Origin: Anaeromyxobacteraceae bacterium
GTDB taxonomy: Bacteria > Myxococcota > Myxococcia > Myxococcales > Anaeromyxobacteraceae
Length of the DNA stretch: 64,000 bases
Direction of reading: 5' to 3'
NCBI GenBank assembly: GCA_047602405.1
Contig: JASGHJ010000002.1
Coordinates: forward strand, 1,088,001 to 1,152,000
In this document: positions 1,988-15,497 of the stretch, one piece after another
Layout: the number at the start of each line of letters is the position of its first letter
Position numbering within the stretch: position 1 is the stretch's first letter
Program-made: the position numbers and the translations under genes
The notes under the pieces: generated by a model
Told to the model about the DNA's origin: nothing
The model's database searches: none
Seen by the model: only the letters and a program-made list of their open reading frames with translations

Positions 1988-2290
1988 ATGGCCAACGTCT
2001 CGATCCGGAACGATCCAGCCCGCGCGGAGCACGTCGCCACGGTGCTGCGCGCCATCGCGCACCCGCTCCGCGTGCGCATCGTCGCGACGCTCTGCCGCTC
2101 GGAGCTGCACGTCTCGGCGCTCGCCGAGGCGCTCGACGCTCCGCAGGCGATCGTCTCGCAGCAGCTCAAGATCCTGCGCGCGGAGCGGCTCGTCGAGGCC
2201 CGCCGCGAGGATGGGTTCGCCTACTACCGGATCGCGGAGCCTGCGCTCCGCGACCTCGTCTGCTGCATGGAGAAGTGCCGCGCCGCCTGA
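1988..2290 (+). CDS. ArsR/SmtB family repressor (possible BigR/SqrR-like sulfur sensor)
   Basis: LRAIAHPLRVRIV...VSQQLKILR...RREDGFAYYRI winged HTH; Cys in TLCRS and C-terminal CCMEKC. Confidence 0.85.
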   Translation: MANVSIRNDPARAEHVATVLRAIAHPLRVRIVATLCRSELHVSALAEALDAPQAIVSQQLKILRAERLVEARREDGFAYYRIAEPALRDLVCCMEKCRAA

Positions 2291-2312
2291 GGCGGCGAAG
2301 GGAGAGCGCAGC

Positions 2313-4631
2313 ATGGCCATCGGCCGCAGGCAGTTCATCCAGATCGGCGCCGGCGCCGCGGGCGTGGCGGGCGTCTCCGGGCTCTCGAGCCGCTGGTGGG
2401 GGCTCGACGGGGACCCCGTCCGCGACCCGGGCACCGAGGGCGATCACGTCGTCGCGACCTACTGCGAGCTCTGCTTCTGGGGCTGCGGGCAGCTCGCCCA
2501 CGTGAAGGACGGGCGCGTGACGAAGCTCGTCGGCAACCCGGCCCACCCGCTCTCGAACGGCGCGCTCTGCCCGCGCGGCGCGGGCGCGACCGGGCTCCTC
2601 TACGACCCCGATCGCCTGAAGAAGCCGCTCGTCCGCCGCGCCATGCGCGGCGAGGACGTGTTCGAGGAGGTCTCCTGGGACGCCGCGCTCAACGAGGTCT
2701 CCGAGCGCCTCCTCCAGGTGGCGAAGCGGCACGGCCCCGAGGCGGTCGCCCTCTTCACGCACGGCTCGGGTGGCGTGTGGTGGAAGACGTTCATGAAGGC
2801 CTGGGGGTCGCCCAACATCGGCGCCCCGTCCTACGCGCAGTGCCGCGGCCCGCGCGAGGCCGCCTTCACGGTGACCTTCGGCACGCCGCTCGGCTCGCCG
2901 GAGCCGCTCGACCTCGCGAACGCGCGGTGCATCACGCTCATCGGGTCGCACCTCGGCGAGAACATGCACAACACCCAGGTGCAGGAACTCGCCCAGGCCG
3001 TGGGCCGGGGCGCCGCCCTCGTGGTGGTGGACCCCCGCTTCAGCGTCGCGGCCTCGAAGGCGAAGCACTGGCTCCCGGTGAAGCCGGGCACCGACATCGC
3101 GCTCCTCCTCGCGTGGATGAACGTGCTCATCACCGAGAAGCTCTACGACGCCGAGTGGGTGAAGGAGCACGCGGTCGGCTTCGAGCAGCTCGCCGAGCAC
3201 GTGGCCGACAAGACACCGGAGTGGGCCCACCCGATCACGGGCCTCAGGCCCGAGCTCATCCGCGCCTCCGCCCGGACCCTCGGCGGCGCGCGGCCCGCGT
3301 CGCTGATCCATCCCGGCCGCCACACGGTCTGGTACGGCGACGACACGCAGCGCGGCCGCGCGATGGCGATCCTCGCCGCGCTGCTCGGCTCGTGGGGCCG
3401 CCGCGGCGGCTACGTCGCGACGGAGAAGTTCCCGCTCGCGCCGTACCCGCTGCCGGAGGGGCTGCCCCACCTCGTTTCCGGGGGGCTCGGCGCCCCCCGC
3501 CCCGCCGAGCAAGGCTCGTCGGGGCCCCACCCCGGCAGCACCGCGGCTGGCTGGACGCCGCGCCCGAAGGCCGACCTCCCGAAGGCGGGCGGCTACCCGC
3601 TCGCGACCGAGATCATCGCCTCCGGCCTCTGCGACGCGACCCGCCCCGGGCACGCGCTCTACGACCTCAAGGCCTGGATCGTCTACGGCTGCAACCTCGT
3701 CCAGGCCATGCCGGACCGCAAGCAACTCATCGAGACCATGCAGCACCTCGACTTCCTCGTCGCCGTCGACGTGCTGCCCTCCGAGATCGCCGGCTTCGCC
3801 GACGTGGTGCTGCCCGAGACCACCTACCTCGAGCGGCACGACGACCTCTCGGCGCCCGCCTGGAAGCGCCCGTTCGTGGCGCTCCGCCAGCCGGTGGTCG
3901 AGCCGATGTACGACGCGAAGCCGGGCTGGTGGATTGCGAAGGAGCTCGCGACCCGCACCGGGCTCGGCGCGTGGTTCCCGTGGAAGGACGCCGGCGAGTA
4001 CCTCGAGAAGCGGGTCACGGCGAAGGGGCTCGACTGGGAGAAGCTCCGGAAGGACGGCGTCCTCCTCGGCGCGCCCATCGCGACCTGCGAGGAGGAGGGG
4101 CTCCCGGTCTCGATCCCGACCGAGGACGGCAAGGCCCAGCTCTGGTCGAAGGAGCTCGCCGCGTTCGGCTTCGATCCGGTGCCGCAGTACGTGCCGCAGG
4201 AGGAGGCCCCGCAGGGCATGTTCCGCCTCCTCTCCGGGCGCGCGCCGACCCACACCTTCGGCCGCACGGTGAACAACCGGCTCCTCGCCGAGCCGTTCCC
4301 GGAGAACGAGGTCTGGATCAACGCCGCCGTGGCGGCGTCGCTGCCCGGCTTCGAGGAGAAGCCGCTCCGGGACGGCGACCGGGTGGTGCTCGTGAACCAG
4401 GACGGCATCCGATCGACGCCGGTCCGCGCGAAGGTCACCGAGCGCATCCGCGGCGACTGCGTGTTCATGGTCCACGGCTGGGGCCAGACCGCCAGGAAGC
4501 TCCGCTACGCCCACGGCAGGGGCGCCTCCGACTCGGCGCTGACGAGCCGCTACAAGGTGGACCCGATCATGGGCGGGACCGGGATGAGCGTGAACTTCGT
4601 GCGCCTCGAGCGCGCCGCCGAGGTGGCCTGA
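2313..4631 (+). CDS. psrA: Polysulfide/thiosulfate reductase catalytic molybdopterin subunit (PsrA/PhsA-like)
   Basis: Tat motif GRRQFI; CELCFWGC...LCPRG Fe-S motif; APSYAQCRGPRE with Cys as the likely Mo ligand; PGTDIA; DVVLPETTYLER. Confidence 0.8.
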   Translation: MAIGRRQFIQIGAGAAGVAGVSGLSSRWWGLDGDPVRDPGTEGDHVVATYCELCFWGCGQLAHVKDGRVTKLVGNPAHPLSNGALCPRGAGATGLLYDPDRLKKPLVRRAMRGEDVFEEVSWDAALNEVSERLLQVAKRHGPEAVALFTHGSGGVWWKTFMKAWGSPNIGAPSYAQCRGPREAAFTVTFGTPLGSPEPLDLANARCITLIGSHLGENMHNTQVQELAQAVGRGAALVVVDPRFSVAASKAKHWLPVKPGTDIALLLAWMNVLITEKLYDAEWVKEHAVGFEQLAEHVADKTPEWAHPITGLRPELIRASARTLGGARPASLIHPGRHTVWYGDDTQRGRAMAILAALLGSWGRRGGYVATEKFPLAPYPLPEGLPHLVSGGLGAPRPAEQGSSGPHPGSTAAGWTPRPKADLPKAGGYPLATEIIASGLCDATRPGHALYDLKAWIVYGCNLVQAMPDRKQLIETMQHLDFLVAVDVLPSEIAGFADVVLPETTYLERHDDLSAPAWKRPFVALRQPVVEPMYDAKPGWWIAKELATRTGLGAWFPWKDAGEYLEKRVTAKGLDWEKLRKDGVLLGAPIATCEEEGLPVSIPTEDGKAQLWSKELAAFGFDPVPQYVPQEEAPQGMFRLLSGRAPTHTFGRTVNNRLLAEPFPENEVWINAAVAASLPGFEEKPLRDGDRVVLVNQDGIRSTPVRAKVTERIRGDCVFMVHGWGQTARKLRYAHGRGASDSALTSRYKVDPIMGGTGMSVNFVRLERAAEVA
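3464..3555. repeat. Palindromic element apparently inserted in frame in psrA
   Basis: Two hairpins (GGGGGGC-tcggc-GCCCCCC; CCCCGCCGAGC-aag-GCTCGTCGGGG) and a repeated GCCCCAC at 3464 and 3524; encodes a low-complexity G/P/S peptide. Confidence 0.5.
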
Positions 4632-4633
4632 CC

Positions 4634-5182
4634 ATGGCGAAGGATCTCAAGCGGTACGGCATGGCGGTCGACACCCGGCGCTGCGTCGGGTGCAACGCCT
4701 GCGTCATCTCCTGCAAGACCGAGAACGCGCTCCCCGAGGGCGGCTTCCGCGACTGGGTCGTGCAGGAGACCTGGGGGACCTTCCCGGAGCTCTCGATGCA
4801 GATCCGCTCCGAGCGCTGCAACCACTGCTCGGACACGCCCTGCGTCTCGGCCTGCCCGACCGGCGCGAGCCACGTGGGGGAGGGCGGCACCGTCCTCGTG
4901 AACCCCGCGAAGTGCACGGGCTGCAAGGCCTGCATGGCCTCCTGCCCGTACGGCGCCCGCTACGTCCACCCCGACGGCCACGTCGACAAGTGCACCTTCT
5001 GCCTGCACCGCGTGACGAAGGGGAAGGATCCCGCCTGCGTCGAGACCTGCCCGACCCGCGCGCTCACCTTCGGCGACCTCGCCGATCGGGAGAGCCCGGT
5101 CGCGAGGCTCCTCGCCGCGCGCCGCCACGAGGTGGTGAAGCCCGAGGCCGGCACGAAGCCCAACGTCTTCTTCCTCGTATGA
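4634..5182 (+). CDS. psrB: 4x[4Fe-4S] electron-transfer subunit (PsrB/NrfC-like)
   Basis: CVGCNACVISC, CNHCSDTPCVSACP, CTGCKACMASCP, KCTFC...PACVETCP. Confidence 0.9.
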   Translation: MAKDLKRYGMAVDTRRCVGCNACVISCKTENALPEGGFRDWVVQETWGTFPELSMQIRSERCNHCSDTPCVSACPTGASHVGEGGTVLVNPAKCTGCKACMASCPYGARYVHPDGHVDKCTFCLHRVTKGKDPACVETCPTRALTFGDLADRESPVARLLAARRHEVVKPEAGTKPNVFFLV

Positions 5183-5751
5183 GCGAGGTCGTGATGGAAT
5201 CGACGAACTCCGTTGGCCCCGAGCCTCAGGGTGCCGTTCGCCCCGAGCCTGTCGAGCGGCCCTTCTGGAACCCCTATCTCGGCGGCGCCGCGCTCGGCCT
5301 CGTGCTCCTCACCGCGTACATGGTGATGGGCAAGGGCCTGGGCGCCTCCGGCGCCTCCTTCCGCCTCGGCGTCGCCGCCGTCTCGGTGTTCGCGCCGGGG
5401 CATGCCGCCACCGCGCCGGGCCTGAGGTCGGTGGCGGCCGCGCCCTTCGACGACTGGCTCGTCTTCGAGGTGCTCGGCGTCGTCCTCGGCGGCCTCGTGG
5501 GCGCGTACACCTCGGGGCGCCTCAGGCTCGAGGTGCTGCGCGGCCCGGCGATCTCCGTGGGCGCGCGCCTCGCGATGGCGCTCGGCGGCGGCCTCCTGAT
5601 GGGCTTCGCGGCGAAGCTCGCGCGCGGCTGCACCTCCGGCCAGGCGCTCTCCGGCGGCGCGATGCTCTCGGCGGGCTCCTGGGCCTTCATGATGATGGTC
5701 TTCGCGGGCGGCTACGCCTTCGCGTGGACGGTGAGGAGGGCCTGGCGATGA
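5179..5751 (+). CDS. YeeE/YedE family sulfur-compound transporter (N-type half)
   Basis: WNPYLGG, GLGASG, GFAAKLARGCTSGQALSG motifs; ATGA overlap with psrB; alternative start at 5194. Confidence 0.85.
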   Translation: MSEVVMESTNSVGPEPQGAVRPEPVERPFWNPYLGGAALGLVLLTAYMVMGKGLGASGASFRLGVAAVSVFAPGHAATAPGLRSVAAAPFDDWLVFEVLGVVLGGLVGAYTSGRLRLEVLRGPAISVGARLAMALGGGLLMGFAAKLARGCTSGQALSGGAMLSAGSWAFMMMVFAGGYAFAWTVRRAWR

Positions 5752-6947
5752 CGTTCCCCTTCGACGTCCTCGTGCACGGGGGCCGGGAGCTCGGCCTCGT
5801 CGTCGCCGTCGCGATCGGCTTCGGCTTCGGGTTCGTGCTCGAGCGCTCCGGCTTCGGCCGCGCGCAGAAGCTCGTGGCGCAGTTCTTCGGCGACGACATG
5901 ACCGTGTTCAAGGTCATGTTCGGCGCCATCGTCACCGCGATGCTCGGGGCGGTGGTGCTCTCCGGCCTCGGCCTCGCCGACCTCAGGGCCATCGCCGACA
6001 GCGCGACCAGCGCGACCTGGCTGTGGCCCATGATCGCCGGCGGGTTCCTCCTCGGCGTGGGCTTCATCGTCTCCGGCTACTGCCCGGGGACCTCGGTCGT
6101 GGCCGCCGCCTCCGGCAAGCTCGACGGCCTCGCCACGGTGGTCGGCGTCGTCGCCGGCACCGTCGTCTACGGCGAGCTCATGGCGTGGGCGCCCTTCGCG
6201 GCGTTCAGCGACTCCGGCTACCTCGGCCACGTCTACCTGTACGAGCTCCTCCACCTGCCGCCCGCTGTGGTGGCGCTCTTCGTCGCCGCGATGGCGGTGG
6301 CCTGCTTCGTCGGCGCGGAGAAGCTCGAGGCGATCTTCTCGAAGGGGGCGGCCTCGTCTCCGTCGGGTCCGAGGCGCCTCGTGTTCGCCGGCTTCGGCGC
6401 CGTAGCCCTCGCGGGCGTCGCCACGCTCGCGCTGCCCTCGGCCACCGCGGCCGTCGCCGCGCCCGCCCGCATCGACCCCGAGGCGCTCGCGCACCGGGTG
6501 GTCGAGGCGCCCTGGAACGTGCGCGTGCTCGACCTCCGCGCCGCGGAGGCCTGTGGCCAGGCCCGCGTCCCCGGCGCCGAGTGCGCGCCGGCCGCGAGCC
6601 TCGCAGAGCTCGACCTCGGCTTCGCCCCGGCCTCGCGCGACCTCGTCCTCGTCGCGGACGGCGACCTCGCCGAGGTCCCCGCCGCGGCGCGCGCCTACCG
6701 CGGCCGCGTGCTCGTCCTCGAGGGCGGCTGGGAGGCCTGGAAGACCTGGGCCCTCGACCGCGAGGACGCCGTGCAGTCGATGCCGGCCCCGGGCGCGCCC
6801 GCCGCCGACGTCGCCGCCTACCGGTTCCGCAACGCGGTCAACGCCGCCCTCACCGGCGTGAAGGTCGCGCCGCCCCCCGCGCCGGCCGCCGGCGGCGGGA
6901 TGCCCGCCCCGAAGCGCAAGGCCTCGGGCGGCGGCTGCAGCGGCTAG
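5748..6947 (+). CDS. YeeE/YedE protein fused to a rhodanese-like domain and a Cys-tipped C-terminal tail
   Basis: GFGFGFVLERSGF, GYCPGT; then VRVLDLR...ARVPGA...VLEGGWEAW (rhodanese fold); ends PPPAPAAGGGMPAPKRKASGGGCSG. Confidence 0.8.
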   Translation: MTFPFDVLVHGGRELGLVVAVAIGFGFGFVLERSGFGRAQKLVAQFFGDDMTVFKVMFGAIVTAMLGAVVLSGLGLADLRAIADSATSATWLWPMIAGGFLLGVGFIVSGYCPGTSVVAAASGKLDGLATVVGVVAGTVVYGELMAWAPFAAFSDSGYLGHVYLYELLHLPPAVVALFVAAMAVACFVGAEKLEAIFSKGAASSPSGPRRLVFAGFGAVALAGVATLALPSATAAVAAPARIDPEALAHRVVEAPWNVRVLDLRAAEACGQARVPGAECAPAASLAELDLGFAPASRDLVLVADGDLAEVPAAARAYRGRVLVLEGGWEAWKTWALDREDAVQSMPAPGAPAADVAAYRFRNAVNAALTGVKVAPPPAPAAGGGMPAPKRKASGGGCSG

Positions 6948-6963
6948 CCCCGGGAGACACGCC

Positions 6964-7893
6964 ATGCACGAGCTCGACACCTCTCGCCACAGCCACCTCG
7001 TCGATCCCCAGCTCCACGTGTGGGGCTGGGAAATCCCGGTCTACCTCTTCCTCGGCGGCATGGCCGCGGGGCTGATGATCACGACCTCTCTCCTCGCCGG
7101 CCGCGAGGGCGAGCGCAGCCGGGCCGCCCGCTGGCTCGGGCTCGCCGCGCCGGTGCTCGTCTCCCTCGGGATGGGCGCGCTGTTCCTGGACCTCGCGAAC
7201 CGCCTCCACGCCTACCGCTTCTACCTCGCGCTGCGGCCCACGAGCCCGATGAGCTGGGGCGCGTGGATCCTGCTCGTCGTCTACCCGGTGACGCTCCTCG
7301 GCGGCATCGGCGGGCTGACCGGCGCAGACGCGGCGCTCCTCGCGGCGCGGGCGGGGCCGCTCGGCGGCGCGGTGCGGTGGGCGCGGGCCTTCGCCGCGCC
7401 TCGTGCCGCGGCGCTCCGGGCCTGGACGCTCTGGACCGGCGTCGCGCTCGGCGTCTACACCGGGATCCTGCTCTCGTCCCTCGGCGCGCGGGCGCTCTGG
7501 GCCTCGCCGCTCCTCGGTCCGCTCTTCCTCGCCTCCGGCGTCTCCACCGGCGCGGCCTTCATGCTGCTCTTCGGCCTCGACGCCGGCGAGCGGCACGCGG
7601 TCTCGCGCTGGCACCTCGCCGCGGTGGGCCTCGAGGTGGCGCTCCTCGCGCTCTTCCTCGTGGGGCTCCTCGCCGGCGGCCAGGCGAGCCGCGACGCGGC
7701 GCAGCTCCTGCTGGGTGGCAGGTTCACCGCGGCGTTCTGGGCGCTCGTCGTGATCGCGGGCCTCGGGGTCCCGGTGGCGCTCGAGCTCGGGGAGGCGCGG
7801 CTGCGCCTGCGCCCCACGCTCGCCGCGCCCGCGCTCGTGCTCCTCGGCGGGCTCTCGCTGCGCTGGATCCTGGTGGCCGCAGGGCAGCTGTGA
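6964..7893 (+). CDS. psrC: Polysulfide reductase membrane anchor (NrfD/PsrC family)
   Basis: WGWEIPVYLFLGG, SPMSWGAWIL, YTGILL, LRW motifs; about 8 TM segments. Confidence 0.9.
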   Translation: MHELDTSRHSHLVDPQLHVWGWEIPVYLFLGGMAAGLMITTSLLAGREGERSRAARWLGLAAPVLVSLGMGALFLDLANRLHAYRFYLALRPTSPMSWGAWILLVVYPVTLLGGIGGLTGADAALLAARAGPLGGAVRWARAFAAPRAAALRAWTLWTGVALGVYTGILLSSLGARALWASPLLGPLFLASGVSTGAAFMLLFGLDAGERHAVSRWHLAAVGLEVALLALFLVGLLAGGQASRDAAQLLLGGRFTAAFWALVVIAGLGVPVALELGEARLRLRPTLAAPALVLLGGLSLRWILVAAGQL

Positions 7894-8845: not shown

Positions 8846-9982
8846 TTGACCGAGGAGATCCTCATCGTCGCCGGCGAGGCGAGCGCCGATCTCCACGCGG
8901 CGCGCGCGCTCGCCGAGCTTCGTGCGCTCCGGCCCGGGGTCCGGGCCTTCGGCGTGGGCGGACCGCGCCTCAGGGCCTCGGCGGACTTCGAGGCGATCGC
9001 GCCCGCCGAGGACATCTCGGTCATGGGGCTCGCGGAGGTCCTCCCGCGCATCCCGCGGATCCTGTCCATCCTGAACCAGCTCGCGCGCGCGGCCGACGCG
9101 CGCCGCCCGCGGGCCGCGCTCCTCGTCGACCTGCCCGACTTCAACCTGCGCCTCGCGCGGAAGCTCAAGGCGCTCGGGATCCCGGTCGTCTACTACGTCT
9201 CCCCGCAGGTCTGGGCCTGGCGGCAGGGCAGGGCGAAGAAGATCGCCCGGCTGGTCGACCGGATGCTCTGCATCCTCCCGTTCGAGCCCCGCTACTACGA
9301 GGGCACCGGCCTCTCCGCCCGGTTCGTAGGTCACCCCTTCGCCGAGAGGCCCGACCCGGGCCCGAAGGAGGGCTACCGCGCCGCGCTCGGCCTCGCGGCC
9401 GCCCGCACCACCATCGCGCTCGTCCCGGGGAGCCGCCCGAGCGAGCTGCGCCGCATCTTCCCGCCCATGCTGGAGGCTGCCGAGCGCATCCGGGCGGCGC
9501 ACCCCGACGCGCAGTTCGTCGTGCCGGTCGCGCCGACGCTGCCGCGCGAGGCGCTCGCGCCGTACCTCGCCGGCCACCCCGGCGTCGAGGTCACGCTCGT
9601 CGACGGCCGCACCGACGAGGCGGTCGGCGCGAGCGACGCCGCCATCGTGAAGAGCGGCACCGCCACGCTCGAGTCCGCGCTCATGCTGCGGCCGATGATC
9701 GTGGTCTACCGCCTGGCCTGGCTCACCTATTTCGTGGGCCGGCTCCTCGTGAGGATTGCCCATTTCTCGCTGGTGAACATCCTGGCGGGCAGGACCGTGG
9801 TCCCCGAGCTGCTCCAGCGCGACGCGAGCCCCGAGCGGATGGCCGCCGAGATCGAGCGGCTGCTCGCCGACCGGGGCGTGCGCGAGACGCAGCTCGCCGG
9901 GCTCCGGGAGGTCCGGGCGTCCCTCGGGGAGCCCGGCGCGCCGCGGCGGGTCGCGGAGACGATCGCCGAGGTGATGCCGTGA
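8846..9982 (+). CDS. lpxB: Lipid-A-disaccharide synthase
   Basis: IVAGEASAD, DLPDFNL, YYVSPQVWAWR, FVGHP, PGSRPSE, KSGTATLE; TTG start. Confidence 0.95.
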   Translation: MTEEILIVAGEASADLHAARALAELRALRPGVRAFGVGGPRLRASADFEAIAPAEDISVMGLAEVLPRIPRILSILNQLARAADARRPRAALLVDLPDFNLRLARKLKALGIPVVYYVSPQVWAWRQGRAKKIARLVDRMLCILPFEPRYYEGTGLSARFVGHPFAERPDPGPKEGYRAALGLAAARTTIALVPGSRPSELRRIFPPMLEAAERIRAAHPDAQFVVPVAPTLPREALAPYLAGHPGVEVTLVDGRTDEAVGASDAAIVKSGTATLESALMLRPMIVVYRLAWLTYFVGRLLVRIAHFSLVNILAGRTVVPELLQRDASPERMAAEIERLLADRGVRETQLAGLREVRASLGEPGAPRRVAETIAEVMP

Positions 9983-10729
9983 AGCCCGCGCTCCTGTGCC
10001 TGCCGACCTACGACGAGCGGGAGAACCTCGAGGCCCATCGTCACGGCGATCCTCGCGGCCACCCCGGACGTCGAGATCCTGGTCATCGACGACAACTCCC
10101 CCGACGGCACCGGCCGGCTCGCCGACGCCCTCGCGGCACGGGAGCCGCGGGTGCACGTGCTGCACCGGGCCGGGAAGGAGGGGCTCGGGAAGGCGTACCT
10201 CGCCGGGTTCGCCTGGGCCCTCGCGCGCGGGTACCGGTTCGTGCTCGAGATGGACGCCGACTTCTCGCACGACCCGAAGTACCTCCCGGGCATGCTGGCC
10301 CGCGCCGCGGACGACGCGGACCTGGTGCTGGGCTCCCGCTACGTGCCCGGCGGCGGGACCGTGAACTGGGGCCTCGGGCGGAAGATCATCTCGCGCGGGG
10401 GCAGCCTCTACGCGCGCCTCATCCTGGGCGTGAAGGTCCGGGATCTCACCGGCGGCTTCAAGTGCTTCCGGCGGGAGGTGCTCGAGGCCATCAATCTGGC
10501 CAGCGTGGAGTGCTCCGGGTACTCGTTCCAGATCGAGCTCACCTACCGGGCCATCCGCTGCGGGTTCCGGGTCGCCGAGCTCCCCATCGTGTTCGCCGAC
10601 CGCCGGGTGGGGCAGTCGAAGATGCACCGCCGCATCGTCCTCGAGGCCATCCGGAAGGTCTGGGCGATGCGGGCGTCCCGCTTCGTGCGCTCGCTGCCGA
10701 AGCTTCCCGCGCGGTCCGCGCCGGGGTAG
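9979..10729 (+). CDS. Polyprenol monophosphomannose synthase-like GT2, with a +1 frameshift near 10033
   Basis: PTYDERENL in one frame, then DDNSPDGTG, EMDADFSHDP and DLTGGFKC in the next; length 751 = 3n+1. Confidence 0.85.
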
Positions 10730-10741
10730 AACCGGCGCTGG

Positions 10742-11398
10742 ATGTGGCGGGAGCTCCTCAGCCTGAGCCTGGTCTCCCTCTCGGCGATCTTCTTCGTGGT
10801 CGATCCGGTCGCGGCGGTGCCGTTCTTCCTCGCCATGACCCGGGACGCGACCCCGGCGAAGCGCCGCGAGACGGCCCTGCGCGCCTGCGTGACCGCCGGC
10901 CTCATCCTGGCGGGGTTCGCGCTCGCCGGGGAGCTCATCTTCCAGCTGCTCGGCATCAGCCTCGGCGCCTTCAAGATCGCGGGCGGGGTGGTGCTCCTGC
11001 TCCTCGCCCTCGACATGATCCGGACCCAGCCCTCCCGGACCCGCATCACCGAGGGGGAGGTGGCCGCCGGCGCCGACAAGGAGGACGTGGCCATCGTGCC
11101 GCTCGCGATGCCCCTCCTCGCGGGCCCCGGCTCCATCGCCACCGTGATCGTCCTCATGACCCGGGCGCGCTCGGGTCCCTGGTGGTACGCGCTGCCGGTG
11201 CTGGGCGCCGTGTTCGTGACCGCGGCGGCCGCCTACGTCATCCTGGCGGGGGCCTCCACCACCGAGAAGGTGCTCGGCCGGAGCGGCCTCGCCATCCTCG
11301 AGCGCGCCGCCGGCCTCCTCCTCGTGGCCGTCGCCATCCAGTTCATGCTGGACGGCCTCGGGGAGACGCTCCCCTCCCTGCTCTCCCTCTCCCGCTAG
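10742..11398 (+). CDS. MarC family membrane protein
   Basis: FFVVDP, FKIAGG, VPLAMPLLAGPGSI. Confidence 0.9.
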   Translation: MWRELLSLSLVSLSAIFFVVDPVAAVPFFLAMTRDATPAKRRETALRACVTAGLILAGFALAGELIFQLLGISLGAFKIAGGVVLLLLALDMIRTQPSRTRITEGEVAAGADKEDVAIVPLAMPLLAGPGSIATVIVLMTRARSGPWWYALPVLGAVFVTAAAAYVILAGASTTEKVLGRSGLAILERAAGLLLVAVAIQFMLDGLGETLPSLLSLSR

Positions 11399-11539
11399 CG
11401 ACCCCGGGGACCGCCGGAGCGGCGGACGGCCGCAAGGTGACTTTCGCGTGGCGCGCGGGGGGGCATCGGGTGCATCCTCTCGCCACGAGAAGTTCTCTGA
11501 ACGACAAAGGGTTCCTGACGGACCAAGGAGAGACGACCC

Positions 11540-13612
11540 ATGGGCTCCAAGGTGACTCGTACCCTCTCGATGCTCGGCGCGGACGGCGCAGGAAAGACCG
11601 CCCTCGTCGAGTCGCTCCTGCGCATCGCCGACGCCAAGAAGGCCGCGGCCGACGGCTCGACCTCGCGCCTCGACGCGGAGCCTGAGGAGAAGAAGCGCAA
11701 CTTCACCCTCAGCCTCCACCCCGAGAGCTTCGAGGAGAGCGGCCGCGGCTTCCACGTCCTCGACTGCCCCGGCTTCGCGGCGTTCCTGACCGAGGTCGAG
11801 TGGGCGCTCCAGGTGACCGACGGCGCCTTCCTCGCCGTCTCCGCCGCCGACGGCGCGCACAACCGCACCGAGCGCACCTACGACGTGCTGGCCGAGTCCG
11901 GCCGCCCCGCCATCGCGGTCGTCAACCGGCTCGACCACGAGCAGGCCGACTGGCAGAAGGCCGTCGCCGACGTGGAGTCTTCGCTCAAGGTGAAGCCGGT
12001 GCTGCTCCAGCTGCCGCTCGGCCCGAACGGCAAGCCCACCGGGATCGTCGACCTCGTGTCGATGAAGGCGCACCTCCCGGACGCGAAGGCCTACGGCAGG
12101 TTCGCCGAGGCCGAGGTCCCGGCCGACGTGAAGGCCGAGGCCGACCGGCTGCGCACCGCGCTCGTCGAGGCGGCCGCCGAGGCCGACGACGAGCTCCTCG
12201 GGAAGTACCTCGAGGGCACGCCGCTCACCGCGGAGGAGATCGACCGCGGCCTCGCCGCCGGCGCCGCCGGCCAGAAGTTCCTGCCCGTCGCCTTCGCCTG
12301 CGTGAAGAGCGGCGTCGGCGTCCGGGAGCTGCTCGACCTCGCGGTGCGGGTCTTCCCCGGGCCCGAGGCGCGGCAGGTCAAGGGCGCCGACCTCCACGGC
12401 AAGGAGGTCGTCCGCCCGGGCACCGCCGACCAGCCCTTCGTCGGCCAGGTCTTCAAGACCTCCATCGATCACTTCGCCGGGCGCATCGACTACGTGCGCA
12501 TCCTGAGCGGGACGCTCAAGCCCGAGGCGATCCTGATGAACCCGCGCACGCGGTCGGAGGAGCGCATCTCGCACTTCCACCGGACCGACGGCGCGCAGAA
12601 CGCCGAGATCAAGGAGGCCGGGCCGGGCGAGTTCGTGGTGCTCCTGAAGCTCAAGGACGCGCACACCGGCGACACGCTCTGCGACGCCTCGAGCCCGCTC
12701 GTGCTCCCGGCGTTCGCGCAGCACACCCGTCCGGTGTCGTACGCCGTGCACGCGAAGGCCGGCGACGACAAGGCCGCCGCGGCGCTCCACAAGCTCATCG
12801 AGGAGGATCCCTCCCTCGAGCTCGCCCGCTCGCCGGAGACCGGCGAGATGCTGCTCCAGGGCATGGGCCAGGCCCACATCGACGTGACCGTCGAGCGCGT
12901 GAAGCGCAAGCACGGCGTCGAGATCACGCTCGCCCCGCCGACCCCGGCCTACCTCGAGACCATCACCGCGCCCGCGAAGGCGCAGGGCAAGTTCAAGCGC
13001 CAGACCGGCGGCCACGGCCAGTACGGCGACTGCACCGTCGAGCTCTACCCGAAGGCGCGCGGCGAGGGCTTCGAGTTCGAGGACGCCATCGTCGGCGGCG
13101 TGATCCCGCGCCAATTCATCCCGTCGGTGGAGAAGGGCATCCGCGGCTCCATCGGCTCCGGCCCGCTCGCCGGCTACCCGGTCGTCGACTTCAAGGCGAA
13201 GCTCGTCTTCGGCAGCTACCACGACGTCGACAGCTCCGACATGGCGTTCCAGGTCGCGGGCTCGATGGGCTTCAAGAAGGCCGTGCTCGAGGCGCGGCCC
13301 ATCCTGCTCGAGCCGGTGATGAAGCTCGAGGTGCGCGTGCCGGAGGAGTACGTCGGCGCGGTGATGGGCGACCTCAACAGCCGCCGCGCCAAGGTCCAGG
13401 GCATGGAGCCGCTCGCCCGCGGCGTCCTCGTGAAGGCGGTCTGCCCGCACGCGGAGGCCATGACCTACGACGCCGACCTCCGCTCGCTCACCCAGGGCGC
13501 CGGCTACTTCACCATGGAGCCGTCGCACTACGACCCCGTCCCCCCGCACCTCGCGCAGAAGATCATCGAGAAGCGCCGCGCGGAGGGGAAGGTGAAGGGC
13601 ATCGAGGAGTAG
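11540..13612 (+). CDS. Elongation factor G paralogue (EF-G2-like)
   Basis: GADGAGKT, EKKRNFTL, DCPGF, GMGQAH, QTGGHGQYG, GSYHDVDSS, LLEPVM; outside an str operon. Confidence 0.9.
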   Translation: MGSKVTRTLSMLGADGAGKTALVESLLRIADAKKAAADGSTSRLDAEPEEKKRNFTLSLHPESFEESGRGFHVLDCPGFAAFLTEVEWALQVTDGAFLAVSAADGAHNRTERTYDVLAESGRPAIAVVNRLDHEQADWQKAVADVESSLKVKPVLLQLPLGPNGKPTGIVDLVSMKAHLPDAKAYGRFAEAEVPADVKAEADRLRTALVEAAAEADDELLGKYLEGTPLTAEEIDRGLAAGAAGQKFLPVAFACVKSGVGVRELLDLAVRVFPGPEARQVKGADLHGKEVVRPGTADQPFVGQVFKTSIDHFAGRIDYVRILSGTLKPEAILMNPRTRSEERISHFHRTDGAQNAEIKEAGPGEFVVLLKLKDAHTGDTLCDASSPLVLPAFAQHTRPVSYAVHAKAGDDKAAAALHKLIEEDPSLELARSPETGEMLLQGMGQAHIDVTVERVKRKHGVEITLAPPTPAYLETITAPAKAQGKFKRQTGGHGQYGDCTVELYPKARGEGFEFEDAIVGGVIPRQFIPSVEKGIRGSIGSGPLAGYPVVDFKAKLVFGSYHDVDSSDMAFQVAGSMGFKKAVLEARPILLEPVMKLEVRVPEEYVGAVMGDLNSRRAKVQGMEPLARGVLVKAVCPHAEAMTYDADLRSLTQGAGYFTMEPSHYDPVPPHLAQKIIEKRRAEGKVKGIEE

Positions 13613-13664
13613 GCGCGCTGCACATCGGGCATCCGGGGGTCCTTTCGGCTAGGATGTCCCGGCC

Positions 13665-15497
13665 TTGAGGACCTACCTCCGCCTCCTGCGGTTCGCGCTG
13701 CCGTACCGCTGGCGCATGCTGGCGGCGGTCGCCTGCATGGCCGTCCTCTCCGGGACGACCGCCCTCTACACCTGGCTCATCGGCCCGGTGCTCCAGTTCC
13801 TCTTCACCGGCGACACCCGCGCGGCGTCCAGCCTCGGGAAGCTCGCGCCGGCGTCGGTGAACCTCGGCGAGCGGATCGCGGCGCTCGACCGGGCGGAGCT
13901 CCTCGCCTGGCTGCCGGCGGTGATCGTGGGCGTGGCGATCCTCAAGGGGTTCGCCTACTTCGGGCAGTTCTTCATCGTCGGCATGGTCGGCCAGCGGGTC
14001 ATGGCCGACATCCGCCGGACGCTCTTCGACCACCTCCTCACGCTCTCGCCGGGCTTCTACACGCGCCGCCACTCCGGCGACCTCATCACGCGCTTCAACA
14101 CCGACGTCGGCGCGGTCGACCTCGCGCTGACGAGCGCCATCCCCACCTACCTGCGCGACGGCATCTCGGTCGTGGTGCTGCTCGCCTCCTGCTTCCTCCT
14201 CGACTGGCGCATGTCGCTCGTGGCGTTCGGCGCGATCCCGGTGACGCTCGTCCCGGTGCTCCGGCTCACGAAGCGGCTGCGCCGCGTGACCGGGAAGGCC
14301 CAGGCGACCTACGGCGACCAGGGCGAGGTCCTCACCGAGGCCATCGGCGGCATGCGGGTGGTGCAGGCGTACGGGATGGAGCGGTGGGAGTCGGCGCGGT
14401 TCGCCCGCGCGAACGACCAGCTCGTCCGCTTCATGCGCAAGAGCCTCCTCATCCGCTCGTTCTCGTCGCCGCTCATGGAGGTCATGGGCGCCGCCGGGCT
14501 CGCCGCGGCGATCTGGTGGGTGGGCGGCAAGATCCTCGAGGGGCAGCTCGAGCCGGGGAAGCTCCTCTCCTTCGTGGGCGCGGTGCTGTTCCTCTACCAG
14601 CCGGTGAAGTCGCTCGGCCGGGTCGGCCAGGTCGTCATCCAGGGCGCCGCCGCCGGCGACCGCATCTTCGAGATCCTCGACACGCCCACCCCGGTGCCCG
14701 ACGCGGGCACCCGCGAGCTGCCGCGCTTCCAGGAGGCGGTCCGGTACGAGCGGGTGAGCTTCAGCTACGGCGAGCGGCCGGTGCTCTCCGAGTTCTCGCT
14801 CGAGGTCCGGCGCGGCGAGGTCGTGGCGCTCGTGGGCAGCTCGGGCGGCGGGAAGACCACCGTCGCGAACCTCCTGCCGCGGTTCTGGGACCCGGTGGCG
14901 GGCCGCATCACCGTCGACGGCCACGACGTCCGGGACGTGACGCTGCGCAGCCTGCGCGCGCAGCTCGCGATCGTCACCCAGGAGAACGTCCTCTTCAACG
15001 ACACGATCCGGAACAACATCGCCTACGGGCGGCCGGAGATCTCCCAGGCCGACGTCGAGCGCGCCGCGAAGCTCGCCCAGGCGCACGAGTTCATCCTGGC
15101 GCAGCCCGAGGGCTACGGCACCCGCGTCGGCGAGCGGGGCGTGCTGCTCTCCGGCGGCCAGCGCCAGCGCCTCGCGATCGCCCGCGCGTTCCTGAAGGAC
15201 GCGCCCATCCTGATCCTCGACGAGGCGACGAGCGCGCTCGACGCCGAGAGCGAGCGCGAGGTCCAGCGCGCGCTCGACTCGCTCATGGGGCTCGAGGGCG
15301 GCGCCCGCCGCACGACGCTCGTCATCGCCCACCGGCTCTCGACCATCCGCAACGCCGACCGGATCGTGGTCATCTCGGGCGGGCGGGTGGTGGAGACCGG
15401 CACGCACGACGACCTCGTGACGCGCGGGGGCGAGTACGCGCGGCTGCACCGCATCTCGGAGGGCGAGCGGCGCGAGGAGAGCCGCGCCGCCGTCTAG
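13665..15497 (+). CDS. msbA: Lipid A flippase-type ABC transporter
   Basis: TMD+NBD; GSSGGGKT, LSGGQRQR, ILDEATS; LPS context; TTG start. Confidence 0.85.
   Translation: MRTYLRLLRFALPYRWRMLAAVACMAVLSGTTALYTWLIGPVLQFLFTGDTRAASSLGKLAPASVNLGERIAALDRAELLAWLPAVIVGVAILKGFAYFGQFFIVGMVGQRVMADIRRTLFDHLLTLSPGFYTRRHSGDLITRFNTDVGAVDLALTSAIPTYLRDGISVVVLLASCFLLDWRMSLVAFGAIPVTLVPVLRLTKRLRRVTGKAQATYGDQGEVLTEAIGGMRVVQAYGMERWESARFARANDQLVRFMRKSLLIRSFSSPLMEVMGAAGLAAAIWWVGGKILEGQLEPGKLLSFVGAVLFLYQPVKSLGRVGQVVIQGAAAGDRIFEILDTPTPVPDAGTRELPRFQEAVRYERVSFSYGERPVLSEFSLEVRRGEVVALVGSSGGGKTTVANLLPRFWDPVAGRITVDGHDVRDVTLRSLRAQLAIVTQENVLFNDTIRNNIAYGRPEISQADVERAAKLAQAHEFILAQPEGYGTRVGERGVLLSGGQRQRLAIARAFLKDAPILILDEATSALDAESEREVQRALDSLMGLEGGARRTTLVIAHRLSTIRNADRIVVISGGRVVETGTHDDLVTRGGEYARLHRISEGERREESRAAV

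Follow-up and report, generated by a model that had tools for sequence, protein, structure and literature searches.

A predicted cysteine-tipped arm on a split YeeE channel within a polysulfide reductase-type operon of an Anaeromyxobacteraceae bacterium

Published accounts of Caldithrix and Ca. Electryonea already describe a gene set of psrABC, pmpAB and a gene called a sulfurtransferase, and the transported species and the role of the sulfurtransferase have been described as unclear (PMC9324843). Here we analysed a 64,000-nt stretch of contig JASGHJ010000002.1 from an Anaeromyxobacteraceae bacterium (hereafter the window, meaning the whole stretch), which carries the operon arsR-psrA-psrB-pmpA-pmpB-psrC at positions 1988..7893. 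The interrupted gene order of the window is its least important feature, and the noteworthy part is a conserved cysteine arm that swaps its scaffold between loci. From sequence comparison and structure models, we see an even prospect that the operon encodes a periplasm-facing, menaquinol-driven polysulfide reductase (Psr), with Cys397 of the arm acting as a tethered carrier of sulfane sulfur to the molybdenum (Mo) site and to the channel. The six open reading frames (ORFs), all on the + strand and at the positions given by an earlier reading made from the letters alone (the sequence-only reading), and the features within them are as follows.

1988..2290, + strand: arsR, ArsR/SmtB-family repressor, 100 aa
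2313..4631, + strand: psrA, PsrA/PhsA-type catalytic subunit with a Mo-bis(pyranopterin guanine dinucleotide) (Mo-bisPGD) cofactor, 772 aa
4634..5182, + strand: psrB, electron-transfer subunit, 182 aa, four 4Fe-4S cysteine motifs
5179..5751, + strand: PmpA-type C-terminal half of a YeeE channel, 190 aa
5748..6947, + strand: PmpB-type N-terminal half of YeeE with a sixth helix, a rhodanese-fold domain and a cysteine tail, 399 aa, 6 predicted transmembrane (TM) helices
6459..6755, + strand: rhodanese-fold domain, residues 238-336 of the PmpB-type protein, by structural alignment
6855..6944, + strand: flexible Pro/Ala/Lys-rich tail ending GGGCSG, with Cys397 at nt 6936-6938
6964..7893, + strand: psrC, NrfD-type quinol-binding membrane anchor, 309 aa

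The six closely spaced genes claimed by the sequence-only reading were borne out by these positions and by intergenic gaps of 22, 2, -4, -4 and 16 nt along the operon, and both of the ATGA overlaps that it placed at 5179 and 5748 were found. The start of the 5179 gene is uncertain, with an alternative ATG at 5194 and homology beginning near residue 27-29. The operon has about the same GC content as its flanks. Its order recurs across many Anaeromyxobacteraceae and related loci and is not due to chance.

The rhodanese match of the PmpB-type protein lies under the Pfam cut-off (19.1 versus 22.2 bits), and the fold was recovered by structure, with Z 12.9, a root-mean-square deviation (rmsd) of 2.3 and 96 aligned residues to 1yt8, and Z 12.3 to GlpE (VIA). 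The catalytic cysteine of 1yt8 domain 2 aligned with Ala303, and the same column held G54/A49/S10/D3/P3 among the 119 residues shown of 121. An active rhodanese was rejected on these grounds, and of the 'yeeE/rhodanese' fusion proposed from the letters the rhodanese fold stands, in a form without the catalytic cysteine. Two other cysteines, C269 and C279, were conserved in 103 of 119 and likely form a structural disulfide. After a further helix the chain continues as a tail without secondary structure, with a predicted local distance difference test (pLDDT) score of 53-60 past residue 370 in an AlphaFold2 model that scores 88 for the PmpB-type protein. Tail homologues ended in G-C plus at most two residues in 120 of 120 listed and carried the cysteine in 121 of 121 ungapped rows, figures of which the 120 of 120 is biased because the search behind it used the tail region and took in the window's own protein. 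Across this genome, 20 of the 32,374 six-frame ORFs close with the narrower form of the tail pattern.

Three kinds of protein carried this tail. It is fused to PmpB in the window, and in Bacteroidota, Calditrichota and other Myxococcota it ends a separate, N-anchored membrane protein of rhodanese fold (EGC or GGC). At 17 loci it closes a secreted protein of about 100 aa with a signal-peptide-like start, an oligonucleotide/oligosaccharide-binding (OB) fold and the ending KKxGGC, for which no meaningful sequence match was found in the PDB. The idea that clusters without a rhodanese-type arm lack a tail was thereby refuted, and the signal-peptide-like start supports a periplasmic tail apart from the helix count of PmpB. 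We counted the survival of the tail across three scaffolds in favour of a carrier role: prediction places the tail on the outer side, where it likely shuttles sulfur between the channel and the enzyme. A literature search, which lay mostly outside subscription papers and supplements (including Table S1 of PMC9324843), found the gene set, and within that scope neither the tail nor the order seen in the window was described.

The two genes preceding psrC are assigned from their sequences as the C- and N-terminal halves of one channel. Both exceeded the Pfam cut-off for Sulf_transp, each spanning half of the model: the 5179 gene covers positions 174-309 and the 5748 gene positions 1-198 of the 310 in PF04143. 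Because these halves are complementary, two independent YeeE transporters were ruled out in favour of one channel; the two YeeE/YedE genes claimed between psrB and psrC are thus in the place described, while the count of two transporters falls. Aligning the two halves against each other with hhalign gave no significant match. PmpA aligns to Spirochaeta thermophila YeeE 239-329, and residues 13-212 of the PmpB model align to YeeE 1-194 (Z 8.9, rmsd 3.9, 178 aligned residues); a Foldseek search with the 399-aa model returned rhodanese-type proteins alone among the matches listed, and the YeeE half was seen in VIA only. Equivalents of YeeE Cys293 and Cys91 are kept, one per half: Cys151 of PmpA (nt 5629-5631, GCTSG), the loop-D cysteine, was invariant in 66 sequences, and Cys112 of PmpB lies in GYCPG as the channel's second cysteine. 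The loop-A cysteine of YeeE is absent from PmpB (column at residues 36-38). A PmpA/PmpB heterodimer has been proposed (PMC11582611), and we infer that the two halves here combine to form a YeeE of nine helices, in which two of the three channel cysteines are kept.

We rejected a TsuA/YeeE importer proper, which is a single chain of about 340 aa with three cysteines and an adjacent YeeD/TsuB, as the channel here is split and lacks the loop-A cysteine; TsuA models scored 35 bits against cut-offs of 400-645. Hydropathy and charge gave PmpB six helices plus a basic loop at 189-210, and the N-terminus of YeeE lies outside (PMC7449682), so that everything past residue 230 is predicted to be periplasmic.

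The catalytic subunit is placed by its sequence in the Psr/Phs/Srr clade of Mo-bisPGD enzymes. Against the PDB, PsrA matched Thermus PsrA (2vpw_A) with E 1.2e-210 and 705 bits, compared with 218 for the next solved match, and its named closest homologues came from Anaeromyxobacter. The twin-arginine motif GRRQF (R5, R6, F8), the FS0 iron-sulfur motif C51/C54/C58/C86, and H150 and C177, which align with Thermus H145 and C173, were all invariant in 101 sequences; we take Thermus Cys173 to be the Mo ligand. Among NCBIfam models PhsA ranked first at 438 bits (cut-off 694), followed at a distance by ArrA (143) and TtrA (59). In a quick tree of 47 rows, read with long-branch warnings, PsrA clustered with Salmonella PhsA against the five other Mo enzymes of the genome (Shimodaira-Hasegawa-like approximate likelihood ratio test, SH-aLRT, 99). 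The sulfur-type assignment of the A subunit in the sequence-only reading was therefore upheld, PsrA grouping with Psr/Phs and not with Arr, Ttr, Fdh or dimethyl sulfoxide (DMSO) reductases, and the grouping with non-sulfur reductases that would have told against it did not occur. PsrB carries its motifs for four 4Fe-4S clusters at residues 17, 62, 94 and 120.

PsrC matched PF03916 with 126 bits, its profile found 2vpw_C only (E 1.2e-5), and hydropathy gave 7 segments above threshold plus one weaker stretch, in keeping with the cofactor-free NrfD-type anchor of about eight TM helices that marks Psr rather than the haem b PhsC. This anchor type separates Psr from Phs (PMC12949373), and on that ground we name the enzyme Psr. 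Residues Y27/D76/S94/Y165/R300 align to Thermus H21/E67/S87/Y130/R239, described as quinone-site and gate residues (PMC8076601), and Y27, D76, Y165, T166, E224 and R300 were invariant in 40 sequences; we counted the retention of this quinone and proton path in favour of a menaquinol-driven Psr. PsrAB are predicted to be exported by the twin-arginine translocation (Tat) system and seated on PsrC, facing the periplasm and drawing on menaquinol. A Salmonella-type PhsABC thiosulfate reductase was rejected, with the PhsA score under its cut-off, 31% identity between PsrA and Salmonella PhsA, and an NrfD-type rather than di-haem anchor.

A selenite (Srr-like) or other chalcogen-oxyanion reductase, with the channel and arm handling selenium, would draw on the fact that SrrA is not separable from PsrA by sequence, on the rhodanese-domain genes of the srr operon (PMC12949373, PMC12481199) and on the transport of selenium by YedE-type proteins in Methanococcus (PMC11582611). 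We judge this very improbable: SrrABC proper was rejected, since the operon has neither an srrD chaperone nor a gene of srrE/srrF size, the closest solved relative is Thermus Psr, seleno-YedE models scored far under their cut-off, and complete tails read cysteine in the loci listed.

To count linkage without bias we used only those loci found with PsrA as the query. The survey sample held 40 of 42 Bacteroidota places and, for 52 Calditrichota places, 23 stretches, mostly picked for long contigs. PsrA is common: matches were observed in 37 of 59 family genomes, while the Calditrichota sample gave them in 45 of 86 genomes and the Bacteroidota sample in 41 of 301. After 41 of the 137 distinct full-length PsrA had been left out for short flanks, 96 were counted, with a tail pattern that had been widened by one letter after one locus (L137) had been seen. 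Eighty-one of the 96 loci contained pmpA, pmpB and a G-C-tailed gene, none contained pmpAB without the tail, one contained the tail only and 14 contained neither. On these comparisons the reductase and the transporter have long been linked, and in three phyla.

A first rival holds that the genes are co-regulated and independent, with Psr working on free polysulfide or thiosulfate, PmpAB and the arm forming a separate uptake or signalling unit under a shared promoter, and the gene order being an ordinary shuffle. The absence of the channel module from those 14 loci speaks for it, as do the lability of the order, with at least four gene arrangements across loci, the arm following the channel more closely than it follows Psr, and the same unit accompanying Otr. 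We nevertheless doubt it, since the linkage is kept across the three phyla, at one locus (L108) a secreted gene with the G-C tail immediately follows psrC although pmpAB is missing, and fusions of the anchor to PmpA occur.

The channel and tail adjoin octahaem Otr-like genes in many relatives, this genome included, and the unit of channel and arm seems to be portable and not tied to Psr. In this genome (G000:C1:203505-209272, L006) we observed an Otr gene (TIGR04315 538 bits, above cut-off) together with a heptahaem/cytochrome b fusion and the pmpA and pmpB genes; the reading frame of pmpB extends to 728 aa, with a VKGGCG tail in another frame, pointing to a frameshift or assembly error. A second site (G000:C1:215765-226200, L007) pairs a third redox enzyme, a set of type II DMSO-reductase alpha, beta and haem b genes (729 bits to TIGR03479, under cut-off), with YeeE and a cysteine tail, and contains an SQR-like gene on the minus strand, an ArsR-rhodanese, a tandem rhodanese, a full-length YeeE and a short ORF ending GGGCL. 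A distinct unit of pmpA, pmpB, a secreted OB-fold GGC protein and an octahaem cytochrome (Otr-like, 153 bits, under cut-off), usually with arsR next and often beside a psr site, was observed at L058-L063, L067, L069, L070, L105 and L198. On a Chondrinema litorale plasmid (L192, NZ_CP111047.1), psrABC-pmpA-pmpB is followed by an arm ending QGGCS and a second rhodanese, and the unit can thus be plasmid-borne.

A wider proposal, tentative and one we lean against, is that of a widespread and so far undescribed 'reductive SoxY', a portable channel-plus-cysteine-arm module convergent on rhodanese and OB folds that would serve Psr, Otr and further redox enzymes of the periplasm. The actual substrate of these enzymes would then be a protein-bound persulfide exchanged with the split YeeE, coupling quinol oxidation to transmembrane sulfur traffic, and we hold this part no more firmly.

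The interrupted order is in itself ordinary. Among the 81 channel-plus-tail loci, 19 showed the order of the window, 58 had psrC right after psrB and 4 had a cytochrome b anchor. In a PsrA tree of 87 rows a single nested group (SH-aLRT 98) took in the window's order, with reversions afterwards, and a single clade of all A-B-C-pmpA-pmpB rows was rejected by the approximately unbiased (AU) test (p 1.1e-7), which was run on 26 rows and a quick tree with groups named after the first trees had been seen. The likely path led from A-B-C-pmpA-pmpB-arm, through fusion of the arm to pmpB, to a move of psrC to the end. We rejected a special integration event in which genes were inserted into psrABC while it was intact, since pmpAB already followed psrC, and the split order is no special evidence of integration because it is a derived shuffle inside an older operon. 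The synteny survey thus confirmed the linkage expected from the letters and not the special standing of the interruption. Better evidence for a joint membrane module comes from the cytochrome b anchor fused to PmpA in L213, L268 and L273 of the Calditrichota sample. The claim that transporter and reductase form one membrane module gains from the linkage and these fusions; it loses the transporter pair and the internal position as evidence, and it is weakened by psrABC without YeeE in two near-complete genomes.

Other arrangements were also observed. In L213, L268, L273 and L233 the cytochrome b anchor and PmpA form one protein of about 490 aa with a G-C-tailed gene close by. A second Psr-like operon type (L125:1462-7025; L045, L075, L078-L081, L210), with PsrA 43-45% identical, has PsrB fused to the cytochrome b anchor, followed by pmpA, pmpB and a separate arm ending ISGGCG or IGGGCG, and A. 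oryzae (L125) carries both operon types in tandem. Genus g3 has a YeiH-family gene in place of pmpAB after psrC (L194:5286-6314 and L195:5994-6965) and a catalytic rhodanese on the opposite strand, and L194 also has a TauE gene upstream.

Those YeiH-family genes (PF03601 164 bits; TIGR00698 86 bits, under cut-off), with the TauE gene at one of the two loci, speak for a second rival, in which excess sulfane sulfur or sulfite from the cytoplasm is exported through the channel to the arm, Psr reduces it as a detoxifying electron sink and ArsR senses an excess of persulfide in the cytoplasm. Salmonella gains resistance to sulfite from YeiH, and the annotation 'putative sulfate exporter' is attached to some orthologues (PMC12880088). 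A Tat-exported reductase, working in the periplasm, would not need its substrate brought inward, which fits export and counts against the 'uptake' label of the sequence-only reading. On the other side, the YeiH swap is one event in two sister genomes, and the tested YeeE-family members TsuA and SoxT import (PMC11582611), a homology by which import is slightly favoured. We consider export and disposal unlikely, and equally unlikely its corollary that the unit would not sustain respiratory growth, for which the production of sulfide without respiratory growth in C. abyssi speaks.

The first gene of the operon was assigned to the ArsR family by NF033788 (75.8 bits, cut-off 55), and its best PDB matches were BigR (3pqj) and then 13ct/6o8k. 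BigR, SqrR and SoxR sensors are defined by an alpha-2 and alpha-5 cysteine pair (PMC10451225). Here the cysteines are Cys36 and a C-terminal C92-C93-x3-C97, and the alpha-2 cysteine of BigR/SqrR aligns with Ala33. Among 39 homologues of more than 55% identity the canonical alpha-2 cysteine was present in 0, CxxxC in 39 and a cysteine near the end of alpha-2 in 32. A BigR/SqrR orthologue was rejected for want of the alpha-2 cysteine and for a BigR model score of 64.2 (cut-off 155), and the 'sulfur-sensing repressor' proposed earlier is not supported as written; the protein is a thiol-bearing ArsR for which the gene context makes sulfane sulfur a plausible effector. Two tandem similar arsR genes precede psrA in many relatives (L040, L050, L051, L099, L101 and L125), and others have one or none. 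A promoter and terminator scan returned 0 sites, at 74% GC where such a scan says little, and no operator-like repeat stood out within 1700-2330. Two RNA runs from one study (X1 and X2, contigs only, shares 0.09 and 0.06) contained mostly pieces 85-95% alike, from relatives, and coverage also beyond the operon.

For the tethered-carrier reading we propose that PsrAB would leave via Tat and sit on PsrC, while PmpA and PmpB would pair as a nine-helix YeeE and an additional helix would put the rhodanese domain outside. Polysulfide, S0 or thiosulfate would persulfidate Cys397, and the arm would pass sulfane sulfur to the Mo site for reduction to sulfide and also to the channel's outer Cys151. A share of the sulfur would cross the membrane and would lift repression by the cysteine-rich ArsR. 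Wolinella Sud, which is said to deliver sulfur to Psr, serves as a model for the arm's role. SoxY bears sulfur on a cysteine swinging arm (PMC5336275).

Several observations weigh against this proposal. The survey counts overstate the number of events because kin are not independent. Two genomes (G014 and G036, 99% complete) keep psrABC with no PF04143 gene in the genome and carry a YeiH-family gene behind psrC, and in a long-branch sister clade, counted at 12 flank-complete loci, psrABC stands by itself, so the channel module is dispensable for some Psr enzymes; as a guess, this clade may be the green-sulfur-bacterial PSRLC2 of PMC9324843. PsrA, PhsA and SrrA are inseparable by sequence and the A subunit does not reveal its substrate (PMC12949373). 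The loop-A cysteine missing from PmpB is essential in E. coli YeeE (PMC7449682). The operon contains no TusA/YeeD gene (four TusA-domain genes lie elsewhere in the genome) and no TorD-like chaperone (the only PF02613 match in the genome sits on the other contig). C. abyssi, which has a homologous cluster, converted S0 and thiosulfate to sulfide only during fermentation, and respiration of sulfur or thiosulfate with acetate or H2 did not support its growth (PMC5317091).

The locus narrows substrate access in Psr and the cargo of PmpAB to questions about single residues, Cys397, Cys151 and Cys112. Members of the genus have been cultured; A. oryzae Red232 (L125) has the order of the window, and A. 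sp. Fw109-5 has the fused PmpB (P0197). Loci in which the module is missing or replaced provide natural controls. Should the arm prove to be a carrier, sulfane sulfur would be handled on a protein tether in many bacteria of soils and sediments that are not known to reduce sulfur.

Elsewhere in the window, a divergent gene on the minus strand upstream of the operon (1-1730) has an HExxH motif and was judged peptidase-like by eye. The GC content drops to about 0.56 at 24000-31000, compared with about 0.75 around it, a likely foreign island. The downstream ORFs at 8846-15497 presumably encode LpxB-like, glycosyltransferase, MarC-like, EF-G-like and ABC-transporter proteins.

Compared with PsrABC of Thermus thermophilus (PDB 2vpw-2vpz) and Wolinella succinogenes, the operon has the same Tat-type Mo subunit, cysteine ligand position, FS0, four-cluster B subunit and NrfD anchor, and differs in that a split YeeE separates psrC from psrB. 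Wolinella Sud is reportedly a free, catalytically active rhodanese; the domain described here (1qxn aligns at Z 8.2) is tethered, without the catalytic cysteine and with a C-terminal one. SoxY ends GGCGG. The tail resembles the SoxY swinging arm, whose role has been described (PMC5336275), in being a predicted periplasmic, flexible C-terminal Gly-Gly-Cys tail. The two are not homologous, the scaffold here being a rhodanese or OB fold, membrane-tethered, with a reductase as partner; a SoxY carrier proper was rejected, as no PF13501 match was found in this 98%-complete genome and the scaffold is a rhodanese fold. ArsR resembles the BigR/SqrR/SoxR repressors in that its best PDB matches are BigR and its closest relatives, in its richness in cysteine and in its place as first gene of a sulfur operon; it differs in having alanine at the alpha-2 sensing cysteine and, in its stead, a conserved CxxxC at the C-terminus.

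The phsABC-pmpA-pmpB-sulfurtransferase clusters of Ca. Electryonea clarkiae and Caldithrix abyssi share the gene set (PMC9324843, PMC5317091), and the Calditrichota loci of our survey have the order A-B-C-pmpA-pmpB-rhodanese-like of these published clusters. The operon in the window differs in having the rhodanese-like gene fused to pmpB, psrC last and arsR first. The portions of those papers considered here name the additional gene a sulfurtransferase, describe its role as unclear and leave the missing active-site cysteine and the terminal G-E/G-C unmentioned. The YeeE/TsuA and PmpA/PmpB proteins (PMC7449682, PMC11582611) share the halves matching YeeE 1-194 and 239-329 and the equivalents of Cys91 and Cys293. 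In contrast to them, the C-terminal half is encoded first here, both halves are longer than the canonical length of about 130 aa and include the central helix, and the channel, without a Cys22 equivalent or an adjacent YeeD/TsuB, has an extra domain, predicted to face outward, that bears the cysteine arm.

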